Assembly (NCBI GenBank): GCA_035503455.1
Contig: DATJTK010000175.1
Location: 2,460 to 66,459 of the forward strand
DNA: 64,000 nucleotides
DNA from: Candidatus Sulfotelmatobacter sp.
Lineage (GTDB): Bacteria > Verrucomicrobiota > Verrucomicrobiia > Limisphaerales > UBA11358
Direction: 5' to 3'
Shown here one piece after another: positions 26,855 to 45,320 of the stretch. The stretch's first letter is position 1. The number at the start of each line of letters is the position of its first letter. Made by a program: the position numbers and the translations under genes. The notes under the pieces were generated by a model that saw only the letters and a list, made by a program, of their open reading frames with translations, made no database searches and was not told where the DNA came from.

Positions 26855-27075
26855 TATCCCGAAGGGATAAATGGAAATAGCCCGGCGTTTCAACGCCGGG
26901 TAGGAACGAGGAAGGATACGAGTCCCGCAGGGACGGCTGAACGGAGCGTGTGGAATATGAATGATCTGGCGGGAGCCGATCAGTCGTCCCGTTCGGGACT
27001 TATGCAATTCCGAATTTTGCCCGGCATTAAAATGCCGGGCTATTTCCAATTGTCCCTTCGGGACACGAAATGCGC
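26855..27075. repeat. MITE-like element: 46-nt terminal inverted repeats (40/46), each made of two hairpins
   Basis: The left arm (26855-26900) matches the reverse complement of 27030-27075. Four of the six differences form two compensatory stem pairs (tAtccc/gggaTa vs tGtccc/gggaCa; cccggcG/Cgccggg vs cccggcA/Tgccggg). Confidence 0.75.
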
Positions 27076-27104: not shown

Positions 27105-29339
27105 TTACGGTGCCGGTGTGAGGTTGCCGGTAGAGCCTAGCGTACCCTCCGCCTGTTTCTTTCCCGCCCGGTCAAACACTACAACGTGGACATTTTTATA
27201 AATGTCATTGCCGGCGTAATTGCCCTCGGTTGTCCAACTCAATTGTCCGCTGGCGTCATTCCACTTGAACATGGTGGCGAGCATTTGTCCGTTCAAATAA
27301 TTGGTTGTCGTACCATCGTCTTCAACAAGCGTAAACGTCGCGTCTTTGCCCGGATAAATCTCCAGTTCCAGCGGACCACCGGGCATTTGGCTGGTGTGCT
27401 CAATGACCGGTCCCAACGGCAGAATGGTTCCAGCCCGGACATAGATGGGAATTTCATCCAATGCGGCTGTGACATGCATAGTTCGCCCGCCATTCACTGG
27501 GGTGTTGGATTCAAAGGGATACCATCGGCCGTGCGGAAGATAAACATCGCGCGCACCGCCGGGCTGCAAAACCGGCGCAGCCAGAAGCGACGGACCCATA
27601 AGCCATTCGTCAGACATGTTGGCCACCATCGAGTCGTTCGGAAATTCCATAATCAGCGGGCGCATGAGCGGAACACCTGTCTCGGACGTTTCGTGAGCCA
27701 GGCTGTAATAATAGGGAATCAGGCGGTAACGCAAATCGAGCGCTTTGCGGATGGCGTCCAGGGCGTCCGCGCCATAAAGCCAGGGAAACCTGGGCGTATC
27801 GTGCAATTCTGAATGGGACCGGATGACTGGGAAAAAGACGCCGGCTTCCATCCAGCGCGACAACAGTTCGGGAGTGGGATTGCCGAGGAAACCTCCGATA
27901 TCGCACGTTTCATATGGCAAGCCGGCCAGCGACCAATTCAACAGAGATGTCGGTGTCATTTGTAAAACAGACCAGGTGCTTTTGATATCTCCTGTCCATG
28001 CGGCCGCGCCCAGGCGTTGCAAACCGGGCGAAAAGGCACGGTTTAACGTCCATAACCGCGCGCCCGGGTGGTATCGCGCGAGCGCGTCTTTTTCGGTCAG
28101 GTTCCAATAATAGTACAGTGTGTATGCGGCTTCACCTTCGTCGTTCCACCAGCCGTCAACCCCGGCAGCCAGCAGCGGCGTCATTTGCGAGATATACCAT
28201 TCGCGAAAATCCGGGTTGGCAAAGTTCACATCACGCGATTCAAATTTATCCCGGCCCGTCACCCGGGCAAGGTCCCAATGATTATGTCGTATCATCGCCA
28301 GCGTGGCGGCATTGCCCATGCGCGGTTTGCGAATACCCACAAAATGCACGCCCTGGGCCTTGTACGCGGCGATTTGCTTTGCCGGCTCGGGAAAAAGCGC
28401 GGGGTTGAAGCTGAAGTCCTTGAAATCGGGCAAGCCAGACGACGGCAGAGTGTAATCAGGCGTCCTGGTGTACCATTCAAAATCGTAAATGAAGGCGTCC
28501 ACCGGCAGTTTGAATTGCTGAAATTTTGAAAGCGTATCTTCTATGTAAGCGCGATCGGCCCAGCCCCAGCGGCTTTGCAGATAACCAAACGCCCAGCGCG
28601 GCGGGACTGGGGCGCAGCCGGTCAATCGCGCATATTCTTTTGCGGCATCTTTCAAGGAGGCGGACGGCATCAGGAAAAGGCTCCCTTGTATGCCGGGAAA
28701 GGTCCATGTCACCGCGCCGCCATTTGTCGCGGCGGTCCAGTATGCAGGCCGATTGTCATCCGCCGTTACCGCGAGGACAGAGTAACCGGCATTCGACCAA
28801 TAGTAAGGAAGCACGGCCACGCCATTGCCGACATGCGTTTTTACATTGGACTGTTTGAGTGAGTTTACGCCGTTGCCGCTGCCATAGACATAGATGGGTT
28901 TATGCCCGGGCCAGCCGAGGTCGAGATTGACGGAGTCGGCTCCGTCCGTTGCATTGAAATTCCCGAGGGCATGCCGTGGAATCAATATCTTGCCGTCGCC
29001 GTTTTCCAGAGTCCATTCGCCGGTCGTCGGATTCATCAACAATTCACCGCCTGCCGTTTTAATCCCAACCATACGATGCCGTTTGACTTCATGCCAGGCG
29101 GTGAAGTTGGGATTTATAGTGTCCTTAAGAAAAGTCGAAGTCGAAATTTCCGACACGCCGTCCGGGTAGGCGTCCAATCGGAATATGTTTGTGTCAATGG
29201 CGACCAACTCCACTTGAGGTTCGCCGAGGCTAATCTTCAGACCATAGGGCAATTGTTGAACATCCTCCGGCGCGCATAAGGCGGGTAGTGCCATCGCAAC
29301 GGCGAATAAACAGATGCTGAGCGATTTCAGGAATTTCAT
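27105..29339 (-). CDS. Glycoside hydrolase family 31 (alpha-glucosidase/alpha-xylosidase type), secreted
   Basis: Signal peptide; GVDGWWNDEGE (GH31 nucleophile-region-like); IRSHSE...PRFPW. Confidence 0.85.
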   Translation of the reverse strand: MKFLKSLSICLFAVAMALPALCAPEDVQQLPYGLKISLGEPQVELVAIDTNIFRLDAYPDGVSEISTSTFLKDTINPNFTAWHEVKRHRMVGIKTAGGELLMNPTTGEWTLENGDGKILIPRHALGNFNATDGADSVNLDLGWPGHKPIYVYGSGNGVNSLKQSNVKTHVGNGVAVLPYYWSNAGYSVLAVTADDNRPAYWTAATNGGAVTWTFPGIQGSLFLMPSASLKDAAKEYARLTGCAPVPPRWAFGYLQSRWGWADRAYIEDTLSKFQQFKLPVDAFIYDFEWYTRTPDYTLPSSGLPDFKDFSFNPALFPEPAKQIAAYKAQGVHFVGIRKPRMGNAATLAMIRHNHWDLARVTGRDKFESRDVNFANPDFREWYISQMTPLLAAGVDGWWNDEGEAAYTLYYYWNLTEKDALARYHPGARLWTLNRAFSPGLQRLGAAAWTGDIKSTWSVLQMTPTSLLNWSLAGLPYETCDIGGFLGNPTPELLSRWMEAGVFFPVIRSHSELHDTPRFPWLYGADALDAIRKALDLRYRLIPYYYSLAHETSETGVPLMRPLIMEFPNDSMVANMSDEWLMGPSLLAAPVLQPGGARDVYLPHGRWYPFESNTPVNGGRTMHVTAALDEIPIYVRAGTILPLGPVIEHTSQMPGGPLELEIYPGKDATFTLVEDDGTTTNYLNGQMLATMFKWNDASGQLSWTTEGNYAGNDIYKNVHVVVFDRAGKKQAEGTLGSTGNLTPAP

Positions 29340-31639: not shown

Positions 31640-31707
31640 ACATAGTTGAATATGGGCGAAGGATTCAAGGCGTCAAAAGCGACGAATTCCAACATCGAAC
31701 CTGGTAG

Positions 31708-31727
31708 GGCGGACGTGCCCGTCCGCC
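31708..31727. repeat. Hairpin ggcggacg-tgcc-cgtccgcc
   Basis: Perfect 8-bp stem in the divergent intergenic region. A tandem (aggttcg)x3 follows at about 31765-31785. Confidence 0.5.
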
Positions 31728-31834
31728 AGGCGAGCGCCCCCGGCGGTCGCGTTTCAAAACGTTCGAGGTTCGAGGTTCGATGTTTTAATTTGCCCCTAAA
31801 CACGCTGCGGATTAGCCTCGGCGCATCAGATGCA

Positions 31835-32596
31835 ATGAATGCCGTTGTCGAGACTGTCAATCTAACCCGCGACTTCGGGTCGTTGCGGGCTGTCGATGGC
31901 TTGAATCTGCGGGTCGAGGCCGGGCAATTTTACGGATTTTTGGGTCCAAACGGCGCAGGCAAATCCACCACCATCAAAATGCTCACCGGGCTGCTCGGAC
32001 CAACGGGCGGTTCCATCCATATTCTGGGCCAGGACATGGCCAATCCCAAACTCGCGCTGGACGTGAAACGGCGCATTGGCGTGGTCCCGGAAAATCTCGC
32101 GCTTTTTGACAACCTCACCGCCAGCGAATATCTCACATTTATCGGGCGCATGTATCTGCTGCCCGCCGACGTCGTGCGCCGTCGGCGCGACGAATTGCTG
32201 GCCATGATGGAACTGCCCACGGATGGCAAGAAGGTGACGCTCGAATTCTCGCACGGCATGAAAAAGAAATTGTCGCTGGCCGCGGCGCTGATCGCCAATC
32301 CCGAACTGCTCTTTTTGGACGAGCCGTTTGAAGGCGTGGATGCTGTGGCCTCACGTGTGCTCCGCGATACACTCAGGCAATGCGTCAGCCGTGGCGCGAC
32401 CGTTTTTCTCACGTCGCACGTTTTGGAAATCGTCGAAAAACTGTGCACGGATGTCGGCATCATTGCTGGCGGCCGGCTGGTCCATCAGGGCACAATGGAG
32501 GAATTGCGGCGCGACGGCTCTTCATTGGAAGACAAATTTCTCGCCGTGGTCGGTGAAGCGGGACATGAAAGTCAAAAACTAAGCTGGCTCGAATGA
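31835..32596 (+). CDS. ABC transporter ATP-binding protein (ABC-2/DrrA-like)
   Basis: Walker A GPNGAGKST, signature-like FSHGMKKKLSLA, Walker B LLFLDEPFEGVD. I prefer the ATG at 31835 (MNAVVETVNLTRDFG). Confidence 0.9.
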   Translation: MNAVVETVNLTRDFGSLRAVDGLNLRVEAGQFYGFLGPNGAGKSTTIKMLTGLLGPTGGSIHILGQDMANPKLALDVKRRIGVVPENLALFDNLTASEYLTFIGRMYLLPADVVRRRRDELLAMMELPTDGKKVTLEFSHGMKKKLSLAAALIANPELLFLDEPFEGVDAVASRVLRDTLRQCVSRGATVFLTSHVLEIVEKLCTDVGIIAGGRLVHQGTMEELRRDGSSLEDKFLAVVGEAGHESQKLSWLE

Positions 32597-34317
32597 ATTG
32601 GGAACAGATCAAAACCATTCTCTGGCTGCGTTGGCGGCTCATCTGCAATCAATCGCGGCGCAGTCACGGATTGGGGCTGGCGGTTTCCATTCTCATTGGC
32701 GTTGGCGCCGTCTTTTTCTCGTTAGGTTCATTCATTGGCGGTTTTTTCGGCGGGATGCTGGGACTGGGCGGCGCATCGCCAACCGCCATCTGGCTGACGT
32801 GGCTTATCTTTACTTTCGCGTTTCTTTTTTTCTGGGTGATCGGCCTGGTCACCGAACTGCAGCGTTCGGAAACCATTGATTTGCAAAAATTGATGCATCT
32901 GCCGGTTGCGCTGGGCCAGTTGTTCTTCATCAATTTTCTAGTGTCCCACTTTACCCTGAGCATCATCGTTGCCGTGCCGGCGATGCTCGGCCTGGGACTT
33001 GGACTGGCCATCGGGCGCGGCTTTGAAATGCTTCTTTTGATCCCGCTCGCCGCCAGCATGATTTTTATGATTTCGGCGTGGACCTATTGTTTCCGGGGCT
33101 GGATCGCCCAATTGATGACGAATCCGCGACGGCGTCGCACGGTCATCATGTGCCTCACCTTAGCGGTGGTTCTTCTGGGACAGGGGCCAAACTTGTATTT
33201 CAATGTTTTCGGCCGTTACCATCGTCATTCAGACCAAATGAGCCCCGGCGCGCAGACCCAGCTCATGGACCGTCTTCTGGTCGCGGAAGAATACATTCCG
33301 CCACTGTGGCTTCCGTGCGGCGCCCGCCCGCTGGCCATGGGCAACCCGGTGCCGGCTCTCCTGGGAACTCTCGGTTGTCTTGCCATTGGCGCGCTTGGCC
33401 TGCGCCGCGCTTATCGCAGCACTATCCGTTTTTATCACGGCGAAATTGGCGGCAAAGCAGCCGCAAAAATCAAAATTCCGGGCGGCAAAGCAATGGCTGC
33501 GCCCGGGACGAATCAAAATGCCGGCTTGCTTGAACTGCGCCTGCCGTATGTTCCCGAACAAGCCGCCGCGCTGGCATTGGCCACGTTTCGCTCAATGTTG
33601 CGCGCGCCGGAAGTAAAAATGGCATTGGCCGCCGTGTTCATCCTCCCCGTGATTGCCGCGGCCACGTTTGTTTTTCGCGGTCCCGCGCATATTCCCGAGG
33701 GCTTGAAAGCATTTGCGGCCACCGGCGCGGCCGTATTGCCCACGTTAATGTTAATCCAATTCCTCGCAAACCAGTTCGGTTACGATCGCGATGGGTTCCG
33801 TGCCCTGATGCTTTCCCCGGCGGACAGGCGCTTTATCCTGCTTGGCAAAAACCTGGCCTGTCTGCCCGTCGGCATTTTTCCCGGCTTTCTTTTGCTCGGG
33901 TTGATTTGCATTCCGCTTCGGTTGTCGCCGCTGACCGTTATCGCCACGTTGTTTCAACTCTTAACGCTGTTCCTCACCGTCAGCACGGTGGGAAACCTGA
34001 TCTCGATCCTCGCCCCGCAACACATCGTGCCGGGCTCATTGCGTCCGACCAGGCCAAAACTCCAAATCGTTCTGTTGATGCTGGCCCTGCAAATGATTTT
34101 GATGGCGGCCATGACCCCGATATTTTTGCCTGCGCTTTCGGAATTGGTGTGGCGCAGCAACAGCCTGCCGGATTTAGTTCCGGTGAACCTCATTCTTTCC
34201 GTAGCTCTCTGTGCTGTCATGGTCCTGGTTTATTGGCAAACGCTCAATCCCCTGAGCCGTCTGCTGCAAAAACGCGAAACCAAAATCCTGGAAAGCGTGA
34301 CCGCAGAAGTGGAATGA
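32593..34317 (+). CDS. Polytopic ABC exporter permease (putative ABC-exporter family)
   Basis: ATGA overlap with the ATPase gene. At least 10 hydrophobic segments. Basic N-terminus WLRWRLICNQSRR. Confidence 0.8.
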   Translation: MNWEQIKTILWLRWRLICNQSRRSHGLGLAVSILIGVGAVFFSLGSFIGGFFGGMLGLGGASPTAIWLTWLIFTFAFLFFWVIGLVTELQRSETIDLQKLMHLPVALGQLFFINFLVSHFTLSIIVAVPAMLGLGLGLAIGRGFEMLLLIPLAASMIFMISAWTYCFRGWIAQLMTNPRRRRTVIMCLTLAVVLLGQGPNLYFNVFGRYHRHSDQMSPGAQTQLMDRLLVAEEYIPPLWLPCGARPLAMGNPVPALLGTLGCLAIGALGLRRAYRSTIRFYHGEIGGKAAAKIKIPGGKAMAAPGTNQNAGLLELRLPYVPEQAAALALATFRSMLRAPEVKMALAAVFILPVIAAATFVFRGPAHIPEGLKAFAATGAAVLPTLMLIQFLANQFGYDRDGFRALMLSPADRRFILLGKNLACLPVGIFPGFLLLGLICIPLRLSPLTVIATLFQLLTLFLTVSTVGNLISILAPQHIVPGSLRPTRPKLQIVLLMLALQMILMAAMTPIFLPALSELVWRSNSLPDLVPVNLILSVALCAVMVLVYWQTLNPLSRLLQKRETKILESVTAEVE

Positions 34318-34331
34318 GTCGCTTTTTTAGC

Positions 34332-34907
34332 CGTCTTTTACGCGGATGGCATTGGCGACGCTGCCCTCCATCTCCGCAGGAGAGCGCAATACTTGTAGTA
34401 AAAGGTCCCCCAAAAGATTTCCCAAAAAATGAAATCGAAAAATTTCTGTCCCTAAATCCCCGCGCCAACATTGAACTTTTTTGGGGTTCCAAATGTAGTT
34501 CTTGTGCTGCCCCGTACATCTGAGAAATTCGAATTGTATCAAAGTCAAAATATGGAAACGGAGAATTCATCAGACGCCGGGCTATTCCTCAAGATCCTCA
34601 CCCTTGTATCCCTTGCGTCCCTCACGTTGCGTATGCCGTTTATGGCACTCATGGTACTCATGGCACTCGTGGCACTCACAACTCCCCTGCAATTGTCCCC
34701 ACATTCCGCCTTGATGGGGGGACAGTTCGCTGAAACGCCTTCAAAAACCCATATTTTATGTCCATCTCTTACGCCGATGGCATTGGCCAGGCCGTTTTTT
34801 TCGGTGATTTGGAGCGCTTTTGGCGAAAAAACCGTGTTTAAAATTCATTTTTTTGACCATCGAAAGGGACAATTCCTGCTTTGCCAATGCCAATGGCGTA
34901 AAAGACG
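34332..34907. repeat. AT-rich ~0.58-kb segment bounded by 27-nt inverted repeats (23/27), with a third direct copy inside
   Basis: cgtcttttacgcggatggcattggcga (34332-58). Its reverse-complement match is at 34881-34907. A direct copy catctcttacgccgatggcattggcca is at 34763-89. The core is a tandem (A)TTGGC hexamer. Confidence 0.7.
34601..34677 (+). repeat. Two adjoining 9-bp-period arrays: (CCCTNNNGT)x3 at 34601-27 and (ATGGCACTC)x4 at 34642-77
   Basis: Read directly: cccttgtat cccttgcgt ccctcacgt ... atggcactc atggtactc atggcactc gtggcactc. Confidence 0.8.
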
Positions 34908-34991
34908 TCTGTATTATTTTGTTCTGTTTAGGTGACACTGCATATTCCGGACAAATGGTGACAGTAATAGGTCTTTTTTCGGAAAAATCTC

Positions 34992-35072: not shown

Positions 35073-36587
35073 ATGGGACCTGAAGCGCAAACAATATTAA
35101 GCTTAATTGATTGGAAAGCTGGTTCCGAGCCTGATCGGCCATTCCTGATCAGCCCGGAGACGGAGCGCGTGCTTACCTTCAAGGGATTGCAACAGCAGGC
35201 GGCAAAGTTGTGCGCACAGTTACGGCAACTGGGTCTGGCTCCGGGCGACAAGGTTGCGTTCCTTCTGGATAACGGTTTGTTCACGGCTGAACTATTCCTT
35301 GGCACGATGTACGGGGGTTTTGTGTCGGTCCCGCTTAATGTCCGCGCCGGCGCCTCTCAATTGGCCTACACCCTGGATCATTCGGATGCGAAAGTCGTGT
35401 TTGCGGGCGGTGAATACCAGAACCTGGTCAAGGAAATCCTGGTTCACGTTCCACGGTCGATAACGGTCATTCCTTGCGACGCCGACAATGGCCCTGTAAA
35501 TCTGCCTGAATCAGCCGCCAAAGAAGAAGCGCCGCCGATTAAACCGGAGGACGTCGCGCTATTGATGTACACTTCCGGCAGCACGGGCCAGCCAAAAGGA
35601 GGGGTCCATACCCACAAATCGTTGTTTGCCCATGGCCGGAATTCTGTTTTGGCTCACAAACTGACGGCCGCGGACCGGTCTCTTTTGGTTCTTCCCCTGT
35701 ATCACATCAACGCGGAATGTGTGACTCTGGTCCCGACGCTCCTCAGCGGCGGCTCGATTGTCGTGCCGCATCACTTCAACGCCAGCCGGTTTTGGGATTG
35801 GATGGATGACCATCGCTGCACATGGTCGGCCATGGTGCCGACGATTGTCTCGCAACTCCTGGACTGGAAAGATCCAAAGGCGGGCAGCCGCGCCGCCGCG
35901 TTCAAACGCATCCGCTTTTTGCGCTCCTCTTCAGCGCCGCTTTCGCCGTCGCTGCACCGGGAATTTCTGGACAAATTCAAGTTGCCTCTCATCCAGGCCA
36001 TGGGATGCACGGAATTGGGCAACGTCTTCTCAAATCCGGTTCCCCCGGGCACGAACAAAATTGGTTCGCCGGGTTTGCCCTGGGGCATCGAAGCCAGGAT
36101 CGTCAATCGCGACGGTGTTCAGGTGCCCGATGGAGAGCCCGGAGAGATATTGCTGCGCGGGGACGCCATGATGCAGGGTTATTACAAAGATCCGGTGGGA
36201 ACGGCTGCGGCCGTGGACGCAGACGGCTGGCTGCACACGGGCGATTTGGCGTATCGGGACCCGGACGGTTACTTTTTTGTCGTTGGCCGCTCGAAGGAAT
36301 TAATCATCAAAGGCGGAATGAATATCGCGCCGCGCCAGATCGATGAAGTTCTGGAGGCGCATCCGGCTGTGTTGGAAGCAGCGGCTGTGGGTGTTCCCGA
36401 CCGGTATGTGGGGGAAGACGTCGTGGCTTTTGCCGTCCTGCGGGAGGGAATGAGGTGCGAGGAAAAGGAACTGCTTCAATTTTGCGAGGGCCGTTTGGGC
36501 CACTTTAAGACGCCCACGCGCATTTATTTTGTCCAGGATCTCCCCAAAGGCCCCTCCGGAAAGGTCCAGCGGCTGCGCTTGGTCGAA
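35073..36587 (+). other. NRPS domain A1: ANL-superfamily carboxylic-acid-type adenylation domain
   Basis: LMYTSGSTGQPKGG; LPLYHINAE in place of an FDxS motif; GCTELG; TGDLAYRDPDGYFFVVGRSKELIIKGGMNIAPRQIDE; PSGK (Lys497, 36561-63). Confidence 0.8.
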
Positions 36588-39500
36588 GAGGCCGCCAAGC
36601 CGGGGCTTGCGAGGTCAGGTTCCTTGGCTGAAAAACCCGGAACCCCCGCCGTCAACGGCCACGCACAGCCAAGCGGGGCCCATTCGTCTGAGCTTCCGGT
36701 CGAACAAATCATTGCCGGCATTTGGTCTGAGCTTCTGACGCAGCCCAAAATTGATATTCAGAGCAATTTCTTCGCGTTGGGGGGCTATTCATTGCTGGCC
36801 ATTCAATGCCTCTCGCGTCTGCGCGAAAAAATTCCTGTCACATTATCGCTTTCAGACTTTTTTGAGAATGCAACGGTCACGCAACTGGCGGCACTGGCGC
36901 GGAAAAGGTTGTCCGAGTCTCCGGGGCAGGATGGCGGCGGCGCGATGGCCCTTGATGTGCCGCCGATTCCATTGCGCGATCGCAGTGTTGCCTGTCCGTT
37001 GAGCCCTGCCCAGGAAAGTCTTTGGTTCATGGAGCAACTGGCGCCGGAGGCGCTGGCCTATAACGAATCTGAGGCCGTGCGTTTGACCGGCAGTCTCGAC
37101 GTTGAAGCGCTTGAGCACGGGCTCAATATCATCGTCGCGCGCCACGAAATTCTTCGGACGACCATCCGGACAACCAGGGGAAAACCTGCGTGTGTCGTTC
37201 ACGAGAATTGGTCCCTGAAATTGAAGCGCATCAGCCTGGAACATTTGCCTCGTGAACAGCGCGACGCCGAGGTGGAGCGATTGCTCATCGAAGAGCCGCG
37301 CGGCCGGTATAATCTCCAATCCGAGCCGGGAATTCGCGCGACACTGATCAAACTTGCGGACAACGAGCATGTTTTCATCCTGATGATGCATCACATTATT
37401 TGTGACTGGTCTTCGGAAGGCGTACTTTGGCGCGAGTTGTCGGCGTCATATCGCGACCTGATTCACGGCAAAGCGCCCATATTGCCGCCGCTGGCCATTC
37501 AACACGGGGACTATGCAGTCTGGCAAAGACAGGTAATGGAGGAGGGCGCCTACGCGGAGGATTTGGGATATTGGGAAAAGACCCTTCGGGGAGCGCCCGG
37601 CTTATTGGAACTGCCGGCCGATCGTCCCCGGCCCGCCACGATTACTTATCGTGGCGCTCGAAAACGTTTTCGAATCGGAGCAGAATTAGTGCAGGCATTG
37701 CGCGAATGCAGCCGGCGTGAAAAAACCAGCTTATTTACCCTGTTTACCGCCGCGCTTGATTGTTTGTTTTACCGGTACACGGGCAGCAATGATATTTCGT
37801 TAGGCATTCCGATGGCGGACCGGGACCGCAAGGAATTGCAATCGATTATCGGCTTCCTGCTTCGAGTCCACGTTTTGCGAACACAGCTTTCCGGGGAAAT
37901 GACGTTCAAGGAATTGGTGGCCCGGGTCCAGAAAGGCGTTTTGGATTTGTACGCTCATCGTTCTCCTCCATTTGATCAAGTTGTCAGCCGCGTCAAGCCC
38001 GAGCGCAACCCGAGCTATTCTCCTTTGTTCCAGGTGATGATGAACTGGCGCGACCGCGACCAGCAATTGACATTTATCGGCATCGACGGGCTGGCGGTCG
38101 AATCTCTTCTGGCAGAAACCAGGACCTCGAAATTCGATCTGACGTTCATGCTGACCGATGATGAGGATGAGATTTGGCTGGAAATGGAGTACAGCACCGA
38201 TCTGTTTGACCCGGACCGGATCGAGCGCATGGTTGGCCATTACCGGACCATCCTGCGCGAGGCGGCAGCCAATCCTGACCGGCGTCTCGTTGACCTGCCG
38301 ATGTTGCCCGAATCGGAGCGCCATCAAATCCTCGTGGAATGGAACCGCACACAAGTGGAATATTCCAGGGACAAGTGCCTCCACCAATTGATTGAAGAGC
38401 AAGCCCGCCGGACGCCGGAAGCGATTGCCTTGCGGTTTGAAGGCGCGGCATTGACCTACGGCGAGTTGAACACGCGCGCGAACCAGTTGGCACGGCATTT
38501 ACGGGACCTGGGAGTTGGGCCGGACGTTTTAGTGGGTGTATGCGTGGAACGCTCGCTGGAGATGGTTGTGGGGTTGCTGGGCATTCTTAAGGCCGGCGGG
38601 GCTTATTTGCCTTTGGACCCGGAATATCCGAAGGAACGAATTGAATTTGTCCTTCAAGACGCTCAAACGGCCGTTTTGCTGACGCAACAGCATTTGTCGG
38701 CTTTGGCCGCCGGAAGCAAAGCGCAGATTTTTTGCCTGGATTCCGATTGGCCGAAAGTCGCTGACCAGGAACAGTCGGACCTCGCAAACACGCCGAAGCC
38801 GCAGAACCTGGCCTATGTGATTTATACCTCCGGCTCGACAGGGAAACCCAAAGGCGTACAAATTCCACATAGCGCGGCAGTCAACTTCATGCAGTCGATG
38901 GCCAAAAAACCGGGCTTCACGGCGCAGGACACGATTCTCGCGGTGACCACGCTGTCGTTTGACATTGCCGGCCTGGAGCTATGGCTGCCGCTGAGTTTGG
39001 GCGGCCAGTCCGTTATTGCCAGGCGCGACACGACCCGGGATGGTGAAGCGTTGGCCCAATTGTTGGAGAGCTGTGGCGCAACTGTCATGCAGGCGACACC
39101 GAGCACGTGGCAGGTGTTGTTGACCAGCGGCTGGCGCGGCGCGCCGAATCTCAAAATATTGTGCGGCGGCGAGGCCTGGTCGAAAGAACTGGCGGAGCAA
39201 TTGCTTAAAAAATGCGCTTCTCTTTGGAACATGTATGGGCCGACGGAAACGACCATTTGGTCCGCAGCCTGCAAAGTGGAAAGCGGCGATGGTGTATTTG
39301 TTGGAAGACCCATCGATAACACGCAGATCTATATATTGGACAAGCAACTGCAGCCGGCGCCCGCAGGTCAGCCGGGAGAATTGCACATTGGCGGCACGGG
39401 ACTGGCACGAGGCTATCATAACCGTCCGGAGTTAACCGCGGAAAAATTTATAGCGGATCCATTCTCGAAGGAGCCCGGGGCGCGGCTTTATAAAACCGGC

Positions 39501-41009
39501 GATTCGGCGCGCTTTCTGCCGGATGGCAACATCGAGTATCTCGGACGACTGGATTATCAGGTGAAGATTCGCGGTTTCCGGGTGGAGCTGGCAGAAATTG
39601 AGGAAGTATTGAATCAACATCCCGGAGTACAAACGAGCGTCGTGATAGCGCGCGAGGATTCACCGGGCGCAAAACGGCTGGTGGCGTATTTCGTGAGCCG
39701 AACGGAAGCTGTCAACACCGCAACGTTGCGAGACTATTTGCGCGACAAATTGCCCGGCTACATGGTGCCGGCGGCGTTTGTCGCCCTGCAGGCGTTTCCA
39801 TTGACTCCAAACGGCAAGGTGGATCGCAAGGCCCTGCCGGCGCCGGATTCGGCGAAAGCCGAATTGGACGCGGAGCGAAAAGCGCCGCAGAGCTATACCG
39901 AGCAGGTGTTGTGTCATATTTGGCGTGAATGGCTCAATTTGAAAGCGGTGGGAATACGAGACAACTTCTTTGACCTGGGCGGCGATTCCCTGACGGCCAT
40001 CCGGATCATTGAACAAATGAACCGAACGTTCAAGGTGCATCTAAATGTCCCGGTCTTTTTTCACAACCCAACGATAGAAGGGGTGGCCCGTGTCCTGGAG
40101 CAGGAGCATAATATCCGTCCGGAACCTCAATTGGTTCCGTTGCACGCGGGAGATTCCGCCGGGTCGCTGTTTTTGCTCGAAGCGGGATTGGGCATGGGAC
40201 TGTGCCGGCTGGTCGAGTCATTTCATGGCGGCCCGGCCACGTTTGCAACCGTAGCGCCGCTGTCTCCGAAGGCCTATCAGGCGGCAATGCACAACCGTGT
40301 CACAGATTATCCGAGCCTGGAAGAGATCGCTGCCCCGCACACCGCGCTGATCCGGAGCCGCTATTCGAGTCCGTGCTGGCTCATCGGCCATTGCGTGGGC
40401 GGGCTCCTGGCTTTCGAGGTGGCGCGACAGCTTCAGAATGAAGGGAAGCCCGTTGAATTGATTTTCCTGCTCGATTCCTGGGCCAGGCTTCCATCACTGA
40501 GCGTATGGGACCGGTTGCGGCGCATAGTAACGGACGGTGCTGGAAATACCCTAAAACGGAGGGCAAAACGATTTTGGAAAGAGGCGCTCTCCCAACCGGC
40601 AAACGTGAATGGCAAACAACATGGAACCGACTCGCCGAATGGCGGCGAACCGGAAACGCTCAACCTCCTGGATCCCCTGGTCATTGGGAAAATTTTCAGA
40701 CATGTTCGCCAGATTCACCAAATCACGCCATTGCAAAGCCACGCTCTTTTATTTCGTCCTCGCGAACTCGCGCCGGATCGCAAATTTTTCTATGAAATGG
40801 ACGGCGCGATGGGATGGACCGGCTCCTTCACTGGCGGAATGGAAATCATGGACTGCCCCGGAGACCATTTGACCATGCTCAAAGCGCCGCACCTGCAATT
40901 TTTGGCTGAACAGATCTGGCAAAGGATCCGACAAAATACCCCATCGACACGGTCCACGAAGCCAAACGGGGCCAGCCAGGACCAGCAGCCAAAGCCGGCC
41001 CTTCGATAA
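35073..41009 (+). CDS. Non-ribosomal peptide synthetase, 1978 aa: acyl-AMP-ligase-like A - T - C - A - T - TE
   Basis: Core motifs were read in order; see the domain sub-features below. Confidence 0.95.
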   Translation: MGPEAQTILSLIDWKAGSEPDRPFLISPETERVLTFKGLQQQAAKLCAQLRQLGLAPGDKVAFLLDNGLFTAELFLGTMYGGFVSVPLNVRAGASQLAYTLDHSDAKVVFAGGEYQNLVKEILVHVPRSITVIPCDADNGPVNLPESAAKEEAPPIKPEDVALLMYTSGSTGQPKGGVHTHKSLFAHGRNSVLAHKLTAADRSLLVLPLYHINAECVTLVPTLLSGGSIVVPHHFNASRFWDWMDDHRCTWSAMVPTIVSQLLDWKDPKAGSRAAAFKRIRFLRSSSAPLSPSLHREFLDKFKLPLIQAMGCTELGNVFSNPVPPGTNKIGSPGLPWGIEARIVNRDGVQVPDGEPGEILLRGDAMMQGYYKDPVGTAAAVDADGWLHTGDLAYRDPDGYFFVVGRSKELIIKGGMNIAPRQIDEVLEAHPAVLEAAAVGVPDRYVGEDVVAFAVLREGMRCEEKELLQFCEGRLGHFKTPTRIYFVQDLPKGPSGKVQRLRLVEEAAKPGLARSGSLAEKPGTPAVNGHAQPSGAHSSELPVEQIIAGIWSELLTQPKIDIQSNFFALGGYSLLAIQCLSRLREKIPVTLSLSDFFENATVTQLAALARKRLSESPGQDGGGAMALDVPPIPLRDRSVACPLSPAQESLWFMEQLAPEALAYNESEAVRLTGSLDVEALEHGLNIIVARHEILRTTIRTTRGKPACVVHENWSLKLKRISLEHLPREQRDAEVERLLIEEPRGRYNLQSEPGIRATLIKLADNEHVFILMMHHIICDWSSEGVLWRELSASYRDLIHGKAPILPPLAIQHGDYAVWQRQVMEEGAYAEDLGYWEKTLRGAPGLLELPADRPRPATITYRGARKRFRIGAELVQALRECSRREKTSLFTLFTAALDCLFYRYTGSNDISLGIPMADRDRKELQSIIGFLLRVHVLRTQLSGEMTFKELVARVQKGVLDLYAHRSPPFDQVVSRVKPERNPSYSPLFQVMMNWRDRDQQLTFIGIDGLAVESLLAETRTSKFDLTFMLTDDEDEIWLEMEYSTDLFDPDRIERMVGHYRTILREAAANPDRRLVDLPMLPESERHQILVEWNRTQVEYSRDKCLHQLIEEQARRTPEAIALRFEGAALTYGELNTRANQLARHLRDLGVGPDVLVGVCVERSLEMVVGLLGILKAGGAYLPLDPEYPKERIEFVLQDAQTAVLLTQQHLSALAAGSKAQIFCLDSDWPKVADQEQSDLANTPKPQNLAYVIYTSGSTGKPKGVQIPHSAAVNFMQSMAKKPGFTAQDTILAVTTLSFDIAGLELWLPLSLGGQSVIARRDTTRDGEALAQLLESCGATVMQATPSTWQVLLTSGWRGAPNLKILCGGEAWSKELAEQLLKKCASLWNMYGPTETTIWSAACKVESGDGVFVGRPIDNTQIYILDKQLQPAPAGQPGELHIGGTGLARGYHNRPELTAEKFIADPFSKEPGARLYKTGDSARFLPDGNIEYLGRLDYQVKIRGFRVELAEIEEVLNQHPGVQTSVVIAREDSPGAKRLVAYFVSRTEAVNTATLRDYLRDKLPGYMVPAAFVALQAFPLTPNGKVDRKALPAPDSAKAELDAERKAPQSYTEQVLCHIWREWLNLKAVGIRDNFFDLGGDSLTAIRIIEQMNRTFKVHLNVPVFFHNPTIEGVARVLEQEHNIRPEPQLVPLHAGDSAGSLFLLEAGLGMGLCRLVESFHGGPATFATVAPLSPKAYQAAMHNRVTDYPSLEEIAAPHTALIRSRYSSPCWLIGHCVGGLLAFEVARQLQNEGKPVELIFLLDSWARLPSLSVWDRLRRIVTDGAGNTLKRRAKRFWKEALSQPANVNGKQHGTDSPNGGEPETLNLLDPLVIGKIFRHVRQIHQITPLQSHALLFRPRELAPDRKFFYEMDGAMGWTGSFTGGMEIMDCPGDHLTMLKAPHLQFLAEQIWQRIRQNTPSTRSTKPNGASQDQQPKPALR
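36696..36920 (+). other. NRPS carrier domain T1 (Ser573 at 36789-36791)
   Basis: FFALGGYSLLAIQCLSRL. Reads GGYS rather than the usual GG(H/D)S. Confidence 0.8.
36990..38300 (+). other. NRPS condensation domain
   Basis: SPAQESLWFMEQ (C1), ARHEILRTT (C2), MHHIICDWSS (C3; HHxxxDW at 37389-37409). Confidence 0.85.
38340..39842 (+). other. NRPS domain A2: amino-acid adenylation domain, glycine-like specificity code
   Basis: LAYVIYTSGSTGKPKGV; SFDIAGLE (Asp1297, 38961-63); NMYGPTETTIW; GELHIGGTGLARGY; YKTGD; GRLDYQVKIRGFRVELAEIE; PNGKVDRK (Lys1582). Confidence 0.85.
39900..40112 (+). other. NRPS carrier domain T2 (Ser1639 at 39987-39989)
   Basis: FFDLGGDSLTAIRIIEQM. Confidence 0.85.
40125..41009 (+). 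other. NRPS thioesterase domain with Cys at the nucleophile elbow (GHCVGG)
   Basis: WLIGHCVGGLLAFEVARQL (Cys1774, TGC at 40392-94); LLDS; CPGDHLTML (His1932 at 40866-68). Confidence 0.75.
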
Positions 41010-41033
41010 CGCCGGGAATTCGGCACCGGCAAA

Positions 41034-41744
41034 ATGCGCCAATCGAATTTACTGTGGGCACCGCCTTCGCATGAATGGCCATTGGCGGAAATGGACATCC
41101 ACGTTTGGGCAGCCGGGCTGGATCCATCGCCGGAACGCGTTTCTGCCTTTAAGGAAACACTGGCTCCCGATGAACTGGAACGGGCGGCGCGATTTCATTT
41201 TGAGATCGATCGCAACCGGTTTATCGCCGGACGGGGCATTCTTAGGGAAATATTAGGCTCGTACCTGGGAATTCGTCCGGAGCGCCTGCAGTTTGATTAC
41301 AGCCCGCATGGCAAGCCGACGTTGAAGGCCAGTTCGACGCGCCCGCCACTTCATTTTAATCTCGGTCATTCGGTGGATTTAATTTTGATTGCGGTGACAC
41401 GAGCTTGCCCCCTTGGCATCGACGTCGAATGGGTCCGCCCAATACCGGATTTGGAAAATATTGCGACGCGATATTTTTCGACGCGCGAGGCGGCCGAACT
41501 TATGGCCCTGCCAGAAGAGCGGCGACCACGTGCATTTTATCAGCTTTGGACCCGCAAAGAAGCCTGCCTCAAAGCAAGCGGGGAAGGACTTTCAGGACTG
41601 GCAGGCCTGCAAATTCCCGATCATTCCAAATTGACCGATTCCCGGACGCTCGTTGAATTCACCCCTGCCCGGGATTTTATTGGCGCTATCGCGGCTCCAG
41701 CCGGTGGCTTGACCGTTTCCTGCTGGAGCTGGCCGTCCCATTGA
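41034..41744 (+). CDS. Sfp-type 4'-phosphopantetheinyl transferase
   Basis: GKPTL...FNLGHS, PLGIDVE and WTRKEACLKASGEG motifs. Starts 24 nt after the NRPS stop. Confidence 0.88.
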   Translation: MRQSNLLWAPPSHEWPLAEMDIHVWAAGLDPSPERVSAFKETLAPDELERAARFHFEIDRNRFIAGRGILREILGSYLGIRPERLQFDYSPHGKPTLKASSTRPPLHFNLGHSVDLILIAVTRACPLGIDVEWVRPIPDLENIATRYFSTREAAELMALPEERRPRAFYQLWTRKEACLKASGEGLSGLAGLQIPDHSKLTDSRTLVEFTPARDFIGAIAAPAGGLTVSCWSWPSH

Positions 41745-44923: not shown

Positions 44924-45320
44924 CCGGCAAATCGTCGGACGTTGTTTGTCAAGAGGTGCTGGAAAAATTTAACAAACTTTTTTTCTTGAGAATTTTTCCG
45001 CGCGGGACGATATAGGAGGCAGAAAGTGATTCGCTCTTTGGCTCTTTGGACAAGTTGAACTTGAATTTCCCTACCCTGTTCGTGATTTGCAACAGTCCTT
45101 GAACCGTAGTTAAACGAATCCCGGGATGAGTTGCGGCGGTGGCCGACATGCCTTGACTGGAAGCCGAAAGCCGTTGCGCGAGTCCCACATGTTGTAAAAC
45201 ATGTTCAAAGGATTATCGTTGTACACGGCAAGGGTGGGGTTTTTTTTCTATATCATCCTCATCCTCAAAGCGATTTAAACCGCTTCAACGTCTCCGCCAA
45301 TTGCGTAGTGTCTTAAATTG

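Follow-up and report, generated by a model that had tools for sequence, protein, structure and literature searches.

Cysteine in place of serine at the thioesterase nucleophile elbow of a putative one-module N-acyl-glycine synthetase from Candidatus Sulfotelmatobacter sp.

The window analysed here, a stretch of 64,000 nucleotides from Candidatus Sulfotelmatobacter sp., carries on its forward strand a single-module NRPS gene (positions 35073-41009, 1978 amino acids), whose C-terminal domain at 40125-41009 is a type I NRPS/PKS thioesterase (TE) with a cysteine instead of a serine at the nucleophile position. This exchange is a modest variant, as the swap is common in the family of this TE and known from the solved, glycine-loading AB3403, and at this locus alone the Cys elbow is to be regarded as an ordinary variant. 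We consider it rather probable that the NRPS is a self-contained one-module N-acyl-glycine synthetase, whose TE releases the product via a thioester acyl-enzyme, most likely by hydrolysis; what we infer are the acid used as starter, the nature of the product and its release by hydrolysis.

The gene was delimited using the list of open reading frames and the translation, and Pfam assigned two AMP-binding, two AMP-binding_C, two PP-binding, one Condensation and one Thioesterase domain to it, in the order acyl-activating domain, carrier, condensation (C) domain, glycine-coding adenylation (A) domain, carrier and TE. The N-terminal acyl-activating domain of the ANL type, which is fatty-acid-CoA-ligase-like, occupies 35073-36602 (AMP-binding and AMP-binding_C) and is followed by the first carrier domain at 36705-36902, which was matched by PP-binding in two stretches and has Ser573 in its motif GGYSL. 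The C domain at 36993-38333 (PF00668, residues 641-1087, E 6e-92) contains HHIICDW at residues 773-779, the A domain was located by Pfam at 38394-39842, and the second carrier domain at 39906-40094 (PP-binding, residues 1612-1674; GGDSL with Ser1639) lies immediately upstream of the TE. Like all these domains, the neighbouring gene at 41034-41744 is encoded on the forward strand; it starts 25 nt past the NRPS stop codon and encodes a 4'-phosphopantetheinyl transferase (PPTase) of the Sfp/HetI type, recognised by the Pfam families ACPS and AASDHPPT_N and by the HetI-type NCBIfam model with 219 bits, which is under the cut-off of that model. The PPTase and the NRPS are probably co-transcribed. 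The genes around the NRPS encode an ABC transporter, this PPTase and a secreted repeat protein; among the window genes only the PPTase is linked to the NRPS, and no dehydrogenase, hydroxylase or other tailoring gene is found nearby. A conserved partner or tailoring gene was also sought around three TE-bearing homologues, P0157 (Ser-type), P0166 and P0169 (both Cys-type), whose surroundings have nothing in common. A membrane protein of 574 amino acids encoded upstream of the NRPS was considered as the counterpart of a 553-amino acid protein downstream of P0157 and was rejected, as the two are unrelated. One Cys-type homologue is surrounded by a polysaccharide cluster.

The assignment of the TE domain (residues 1685-1978, plus the stop codon) is based on PF00975, on alignments with PDB structures, on an AlphaFold2 model and on Foldseek. 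PF00975 matched the C-terminal 294 amino acids with 55.9 bits (cut-off 26.4, E 9e-15), the elbow region being covered, and reached 50.3 bits in the whole protein. In the phmmer alignments with solved structures, Cys1774 of the GxCxG elbow (W-L-I-G-H-C-V-G-G; codon TGC at 40392-40394) occupies the column in which Vlm2 (GHSLGG), EntF (GYSLGG) and the tautomycetin TE (GHSSGG) have their nucleophilic Ser and AB3403 (GWCFGG) has its nucleophilic Cys. The triad acid was placed by the same comparison at Asp1801 (GAT at 40473-40475), in “position I” after strand beta6, since the segment LIFLLDS matches the Asp-bearing strand of AB3403 (IVMIDT) and EntF (LGLLDTW), and the triad histidine at His1932 (CAT at 40866-40868), whose motif PGDH matches the His motif of Vlm2, AB3403 and the tautomycetin TE. 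Across the family alignment A1, the triad His is invariant (H248) and the Asp column is at least 90% conserved. The model of the TE domain has a mean pLDDT of 85.3, rising above 95 in the segments around the elbow, the Asp and the His; strands and helices alternate in it, with a lid of low confidence at residues 125-185. Its best Foldseek matches are the type I TEs Vlm2, Pks13, tautomycetin TE and AB3403 (E 1e-14 to 1e-11). As far as can be judged from these alignments, the Cys-His-Asp triad Cys1774/His1932/Asp1801 is intact at its canonical positions. A preceding reading of this DNA, made from the sequence only, had already proposed a type I TE with Cys at the nucleophile elbow and His1932 as the triad histidine, and both proposals agree with these results, including the profile and structural alignment of the elbow that it had suggested.

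A single TGC codon could nevertheless be an artefact of sequencing or assembly, or it could mark a domain in decay that was recently inactivated by mutation, as TGC is one transversion away from the Ser codon TCC and the Ser codons of the relatives at this site are all TCN. We regard this as extremely unlikely. A contig of 1539 nt from another metagenome assembly (L086) is 100% identical over window positions 40140-41678, TGC included, and a relative (L001) with 80.4% nucleotide and 73% amino-acid identity has kept TGC while the flanking codons have changed synonymously; a sequencing error is unlikely because of this identical independent contig and this TGC-bearing relative. Against inactivation stand the dN/dS of 0.20 for the TE, calculated between the NRPS and the 80%-identical relative, the intact triad Asp and His, and the Cys that is found at the elbow even in a relative of 47% identity (P0006). 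The TE, Cys included, is conserved under purifying selection.

The Stachelhaus code of the A domain, which was read from the alignment with AB3403 and the motif positions, is DILQLGMIWK and thus a glycine code (AB3403: DILQLGVVWK), in line with the previous assumption that glycine is the amino acid loaded. AB3403 is also the best match of the A-domain core among solved structures, while the best solved match of C-A-T as a whole is LgrA, via the C-A-T of its second module. For the N-terminal domain, the best NCBIfam match is the long-chain-fatty-acid--CoA ligase PRK06187 with 408 bits, under the cut-off of 476 bits, and among solved structures it is most closely related to oxalate-CoA ligase, which ranks first, and to FadD13 and 4CL, but not to fatty acyl-AMP ligases (FAALs). 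Being fused to a carrier, the domain is taken to be carrier-loading; its starter acid is probably a fatty acid, with some uncertainty from the oxalate-CoA ligase as the top solved relative. In the proposed mechanism, the N-terminal domain would activate this carboxylic acid and load it onto the first carrier, the A domain would place glycine on the second carrier, and the C domain would join both to N-acyl-glycyl-S-carrier. The acyl-glycyl group would then move onto Cys1774, activated by His1932 and Asp1801, and resolution of the thioester acyl-enzyme would release the product, with water as the likeliest nucleophile and free N-acyl-glycine as the result. The literature was also searched for an NRPS route leading to N-acyl-glycine, and no relevant report was retrieved.

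The closest precedent for this arrangement comes from Acinetobacter baumannii, where the module AB3403 (A1S_0115; PDB 4ZXH and 4ZXI) terminates the Ac-505 pathway. AB3403 was crystallised with glycine, its best substrate, and its TE has a nucleophilic Cys and a triad Asp following strand beta6. AB3403 and the NRPS thus share the C-A-T-TE core, a glycine-type code, the nucleophilic Cys, the Asp at position I and an upstream acyl-activating enzyme with a carrier that furnishes the donor. This precedent speaks against the view that the pairing of a Cys elbow with glycine is a mismatch lacking any precedent. However, Acinetobacter encodes its acyl-CoA-synthetase-like enzyme and its ACP in separate genes of an eight-gene operon, which also contains a dehydrogenase gene and others, whereas the NRPS has both functions fused to the module and is accompanied by the PPTase alone. 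The TEs themselves are distant (28 bits, E 8e-6; GWCFGG as opposed to GHCVGG), the gammaproteobacterial GWC-type TEs gave weak matches to the TE, in which some 200 residues aligned with about 29-32% identity, and a test for orthology by a close TE together with the operon genes for acyl-CoA synthetase, dehydrogenase, ACP and A1S_0116-0119 had a negative outcome. On the basis of these comparisons, the NRPS is best described as an analogue of AB3403 and not as its orthologue. The pathway product Ac-505 is more than a simple N-acyl-glycine, which counts against the preferred reading of the NRPS; it contains an extra Cys-Gly and is not fully defined.

Cys-type TEs were associated by the sequence-only reading with beta-lactone or beta-lactam formation, on the example of ObiF (obafluorin) and SulM (sulfazecin). 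Both are type I TEs of NRPSs with small acylated amino-acid products and have the GxCxG elbow in common with the TE described here, and a substrate modified after loading, with a misleading glycine code, would bring the NRPS close to them. This explanation is highly improbable. In TEs of the ObiF/SulM type the triad Asp is relocated to position II and Gly is found at position I, whereas Asp1801 occupies position I, in agreement with EntF and AB3403; where SulM reads Q-C-N, the TE described here reads H-C-V. In addition, the substrates of ObiF and SulM are beta-hydroxy or beta-amino compounds, in contrast to the canonical glycine code of the NRPS, which is close to that of the glycine-binding AB3403; there is no hydroxylase or tailoring gene nearby, and the Cys-type TEs of the family occur together with many codes. 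Beta-lactone or beta-lactam chemistry was rejected for this TE because neither the place of its Asp nor its glycine code fits. More generally, a Cys elbow in a TE should be taken as a flag for such chemistry only where Asp position and substrate code point the same way. The association is also too narrow, as MacB-TE (macolacin), the product of which is a macrolactam, and the sorangibactin TE, for which an external amino acid has been proposed as the nucleophile, are Cys-His-Asp TEs of NRPSs outside beta-lactone chemistry. MacB-TE groups with Ser-type TEs, as does the TE described here; however, it macrolactamises a long peptide, and the sorangibactin TE acts on a siderophore chain, and neither such a substrate nor such an acceptor is evident for the TE of the NRPS.

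In order to place the TE in its family, the elbow residue was surveyed among its relatives. When the TE domain was used as query, a word-indexed protein search yielded 5 matches only, and the family was therefore viewed through an exhaustive search of representatives. In all, the TEs of the family amount to about 8,000 hits. The 154 nearest representatives include 115 with Ser and 35 with Cys, and the 76 full-length homologues with the same architecture divide into 48 with Ser, 27 with Cys and one with Tyr. At the reference-genome loci, where the highest TE identity was 45%, 39 elbow codons encode Ser (all TCN) and 46 encode Cys (all TGY). These two codon types differ by one transversion. The Cys share of 23-50% in the different surveys, roughly a quarter to a half, lies about tenfold or more above the figure given for TEs generally, for which Cys-type enzymes make up about 2% of those characterised (PMC13288461). 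The earlier statement that Cys-for-Ser TEs are rare therefore applies to characterised TEs as a whole but not to the family concerned.

The sequence-only reading had suggested a survey for Cys/Ser covariation with the code of the A domain, and none emerged. Members with a glycine code have Ser in 42 cases and Cys in 22, the Cys-type TEs of the family are found with many codes, including Ala-, Leu-, Val- and Asn-like ones, and no association was detected (Fisher p = 0.51-0.52, calculated without phylogenetic correction). A free mixing of Cys and Ser among close homologues without a functional correlate, which that reading had named as a finding that would speak against it, is largely what is seen, yet the states are not randomly distributed: they are grouped by clade and stable within clades, as in one all-Cys clade of 18 representatives. 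Such stability at the clade level fits selection and neutrality alike. Taken from the distribution of the sequences, Cys appears as a lineage-specific alternative nucleophile in a family that swaps Ser and Cys interchangeably at the clade level.

The Ser-type homologues are otherwise very similar. The best full-length homologue, the metagenome protein P0157 (64% identity over 99% of the query), has a nucleophilic Ser. The same is true of acidobacterial proteins that fully match the NRPS in architecture and code, among them the one from Terracidiphilus gabretensis S55 (locus L015). Both L015 and P0157 show the six-domain order and the code DILQLGMIWK. Homologues of this type comprise about 1960-2010 amino acids and have 53-66% identity over 98-99% of the protein, but their nucleophile is Ser (GHSFGG), and their TE, with about 33-45% identity to the TE described here, is far more divergent than the remaining protein. 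Because the divergence of the TE exceeds that of the rest, an exchange or a fast evolution of the TE is suggested.

Whether the nucleophile affects the chemistry of release is a separate question. The Cys-type TEs that have been mutated, ObiF, MacB-TE and the sorangibactin TE, all need the Cys for non-hydrolytic release, and the exchange of Cys for Ser leads to hydrolysis or to no product; by analogy, since the Cys is required in these enzymes, it may also be relevant for the TE of the NRPS, a point against the preferred hydrolytic reading. The Cys could be adaptive in that the thioester acyl-enzyme is more reactive and is resolved not by water but by another nucleophile, such as an external amine, thiol or alcohol (polyamine, amino acid, sugar or lipid hydroxyl) or a hydroxyl of the acyl chain, so that Cys- and Ser-type members make different products. 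Besides the loss of the non-hydrolytic outcome in the mutants, the external amino acid proposed for the sorangibactin TE, the extra Cys-Gly in Ac-505, the high Cys frequency in the family compared with TEs generally, the stability of the Cys state in clades and the polysaccharide cluster around one Cys homologue argue for this explanation. However, no conserved partner gene adjoins the Cys- or Ser-type homologues examined, both types are alike in architecture and glycine code, the window shows the NRPS linked to the PPTase alone, and the acceptor substrate is without direct evidence. We therefore rate an adaptive Cys as a minority option, and it is somewhat less likely still that the Cys-type members, including this NRPS, transfer acyl-glycine to an external nucleophile or to an acyl-chain hydroxyl without hydrolysis. 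The transfer to an external nucleophile, which had been put forward as a role for the Cys, may occur but finds no support in the gene context. If it does take place, Cys- and Ser-type enzymes would share one assembly line and yet make lipids that differ chemically.

With hydrolytic release to N-acyl-glycine as the preferred reading, the NRPS belongs to a large and abundant family of uncharacterised, putative single-module acyl-glycine synthetases, found in soil bacteria of the Acidobacteriota, the Verrucomicrobiota and related groups. The family supplies natural Ser/Cys pairs with the same architecture and code, which are suitable for testing the effect of a nucleophile swap on the release chemistry, and one Ser-type member, that of Terracidiphilus gabretensis, comes from a cultivated strain. 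As a side observation, two matches to the Acido-Lenti-1 RNA were found, and the neighbouring genes are of acidobacterial type.

The thioesterase (TE) domain belongs to a nonribosomal peptide synthetase (NRPS) encoded by an ORF of 5937 nt (35073-41009, + strand; 1978 aa), along which the Pfam hits run in the order AMP-binding, PP-binding, Condensation, AMP-binding, PP-binding and Thioesterase, with the Cys-bearing TE at the 3' end. Positions 40392-40394 read TGC and encode Cys1774 within WLIGHCVGG, and the isolated domain matches PF00975 with 55.9 bits (cut-off 26.4). When aligned to solved TEs, Cys1774 occupies the column of the Ser nucleophile in Vlm2, EntF and the tautomycetin TE and of the Cys nucleophile in AB3403, a C-A-T-TE module of A. 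baumannii, LIFLLDS pairs with the Asp-bearing strand in EntF and AB3403, and PGDH pairs with the His motif; the catalytic triad is therefore formed by Cys1774, Asp1801 and His1932. An AlphaFold2 model of the TE, based on an input of 24 family sequences, reached a mean pLDDT of 85.3 with uncertainty in the lid only, and type I TEs were its best structural matches. Codon, profile match and alignments agree with the sequence-only reading, which had placed a Cys at the nucleophile elbow and assigned His1932 as the TE His; that reading observed the site correctly and described it well.

The Cys codon is also found outside this assembly. Positions 40140-41678 of the window (1539 nt) recur with 100% identity on a contig of another metagenome assembly, and a relative at 80.4% nucleotide identity retains TGC with synonymous differences in the flanking Gly codons, the TE dN/dS between the query and this relative being 0.20. 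A sequencing error as the source of the Cys is effectively excluded by the identical contig and the retained codon, and the low dN/dS, together with these, makes error or domain decay at this position unlikely.

The ten specificity positions of the adenylation (A) domain read DILQLGMIWK, compared with DILQLGVVWK in AB3403, which was crystallised with glycine and matches this part of the domain better than any other solved structure; this supports glycine as the loaded amino acid, as originally proposed. The most likely mechanism, which we favour with moderate confidence, is that of an acyl-glycine synthetase with a Cys-bound thioester intermediate and release by water as the default. The N-terminal ANL domain, which is fatty-acid-CoA-ligase-like, would activate a candidate acid and load it onto the first carrier, the A domain would place glycine on the second, and the C domain would produce the N-acyl-glycyl-S-carrier. 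The acyl-glycyl moiety would then be moved onto Cys1774 and the thioester resolved, by default with water as the nucleophile, from which we infer N-acyl-glycine as the probable product.

Since Cys-TEs had been taken for beta-lactone or beta-lactam enzymes, a mismatch with glycine was initially seen. In ObiF (obafluorin) and SulM (sulfazecin) the triad Asp is relocated, whereas in AB3403 it occupies the usual place after strand beta6. With its Asp at this usual position and H-C-V around the Cys, the query TE departs from ObiF and SulM and resembles the layout of AB3403, to whose TE it is only distantly related (28 bits); these features and the glycine code effectively exclude beta-lactone chemistry. 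In the literature, AB3403 is named as the only other NRPS TE of characterised structure whose nucleophile is Cys, and its best substrate is glycine and the pathway product the lipopeptide-like Ac-505. The range of Cys-TEs, which are quoted at about 2% of known TEs (PMC13288461), is further widened by MacB-TE, which uses its Cys in macrolactamisation (PMC13288461), and by the sorangibactin TE, in which the Cys is required and an external amino acid is the proposed nucleophile.

Searched exhaustively, the TE domain has 8290 protein matches (E up to 1e-3); of the 154 closest that were collected, 115 carry Ser at the elbow and 35 carry Cys. Hosts in the reference genomes are mainly uncultured soil Verrucomicrobiota, Acidobacteriota (Bryobacterales, Terracidiphilus), Binatia and Gammaproteobacteria; here, all 46 Cys codons are TGY and all 39 Ser codons TCN, so that the two states are one transversion apart. 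The neighbour-joining tree contains one all-Cys clade with 18 representatives and at least five more Cys lineages, and the query TE clusters with two Cys proteins (73% and 47% identity) within a mostly Ser clade. The second-closest of these relatives (P0006, 677 aa, from a metagenome, 47% identity) has the order carrier-TE-carrier-TE, with Cys at the elbow of both tandem TE-like domains (GGFCFGG, GHCFGA).

A query with the full-length protein retrieved many homologues that share the six-domain architecture, with 53-66% identity across 98-99% of the protein; those bearing a TE have Ser in 48 cases, Cys in 27 and Tyr in one. With a glycine-type code the counts are 42 Ser and 22 Cys, Cys-TEs of the family occur with many non-glycine codes too, and no association between nucleophile and A-domain code was detected (Fisher p = 0.51; TE-level set p = 0.52). 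P0157, which is the nearest homologue over the full length (64% identity), has Ser, as do acidobacterial proteins of identical architecture and code, including that of the cultivated Terracidiphilus gabretensis. Because of the solved precedent and the frequency of Cys without code correlation, the idea that an uncommon Cys is at odds with glycine finds no support. Among the homologues P0155-P0274, the TEs are only ~30-47% identical (closest relative excepted) compared with 55-66% for the whole protein, and several unrelated elbow types occur (GHSFGG, GYCWSGN, GYCIGG, GYSLxGK), which suggests that the TE may have been exchanged repeatedly on a conserved core. The Tyr-bearing homologue (P0248, 54% identity; VGYYFPGK) also has Glu replacing the triad Asp, and its TE may be inactive or repurposed.

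Alternatively, the Cys could matter for a non-hydrolytic release, which we regard as rather unlikely. Ser and Cys are each stable inside TE clades, the family shows a strong enrichment of Cys, and characterised Cys-TEs lose their special outcome in C-to-S mutants, all of which would fit such a role; however, no acceptor or partner gene backs it. The neighbourhoods of a Ser-type homologue and two Cys-type ones have no genes in common. In the window, the start of an Sfp/HetI-type phosphopantetheinyl transferase gene (41034-41744) lies 25 nt downstream of the NRPS gene. Upstream are an ABC ATPase gene (31646-32596) and, translationally coupled to it, the gene of a 574-aa predicted membrane protein (32593-34317, + strand; no match in Pfam or NCBIfam), followed by a 154-aa ORF directly before the NRPS (34471-34935, + strand; no Pfam match). 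Further neighbours encode a secreted LRR/CarboxypepD_reg protein, glycoside hydrolases, PEPCK, 5-FTHF cyclo-ligase and 6S RNA, and apart from the transferase the surroundings look unrelated to secondary metabolism. A modestly interesting by-product is the uncharacterised family itself, which by its size and high Cys frequency offers a natural test bed for the question of Ser versus Cys.

Some homologues lack the TE; these are about 1700-1726 aa long (61-66% identity to the first 85% of the query) and directly precede large PKS genes, as in locus L084 (8001-21181, homologue P0194), so the acyl-A/T/C/A(Gly)/T cassette also serves as a loading unit of hybrid assembly lines; combined with a TE, it seems to act as an enzyme on its own. 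One Cys-type homologue (P0169, locus L085) lies amid genes for glycosyltransferases, a polysaccharide deacetylase, a DegT aminotransferase and a sugar transferase, which points tentatively to a connection with a surface glycoconjugate in its organism. Two Acido-Lenti-1 RNA matches (RF01687; 26855-26900, - strand, and 27020-27065, + strand), both scoring over the gathering threshold, are oppositely oriented and ~120 nt apart, just past the end of the GH31 gene (27105-29339, - strand) on its 3' side; they suggest a host resembling Acidobacteriota. The 6S/SsrS RNA (45065-45244, + strand, 59.6 bits) is flanked by the genes of the LRR/CarboxypepD_reg protein and an MgsA-type AAA+ ATPase.
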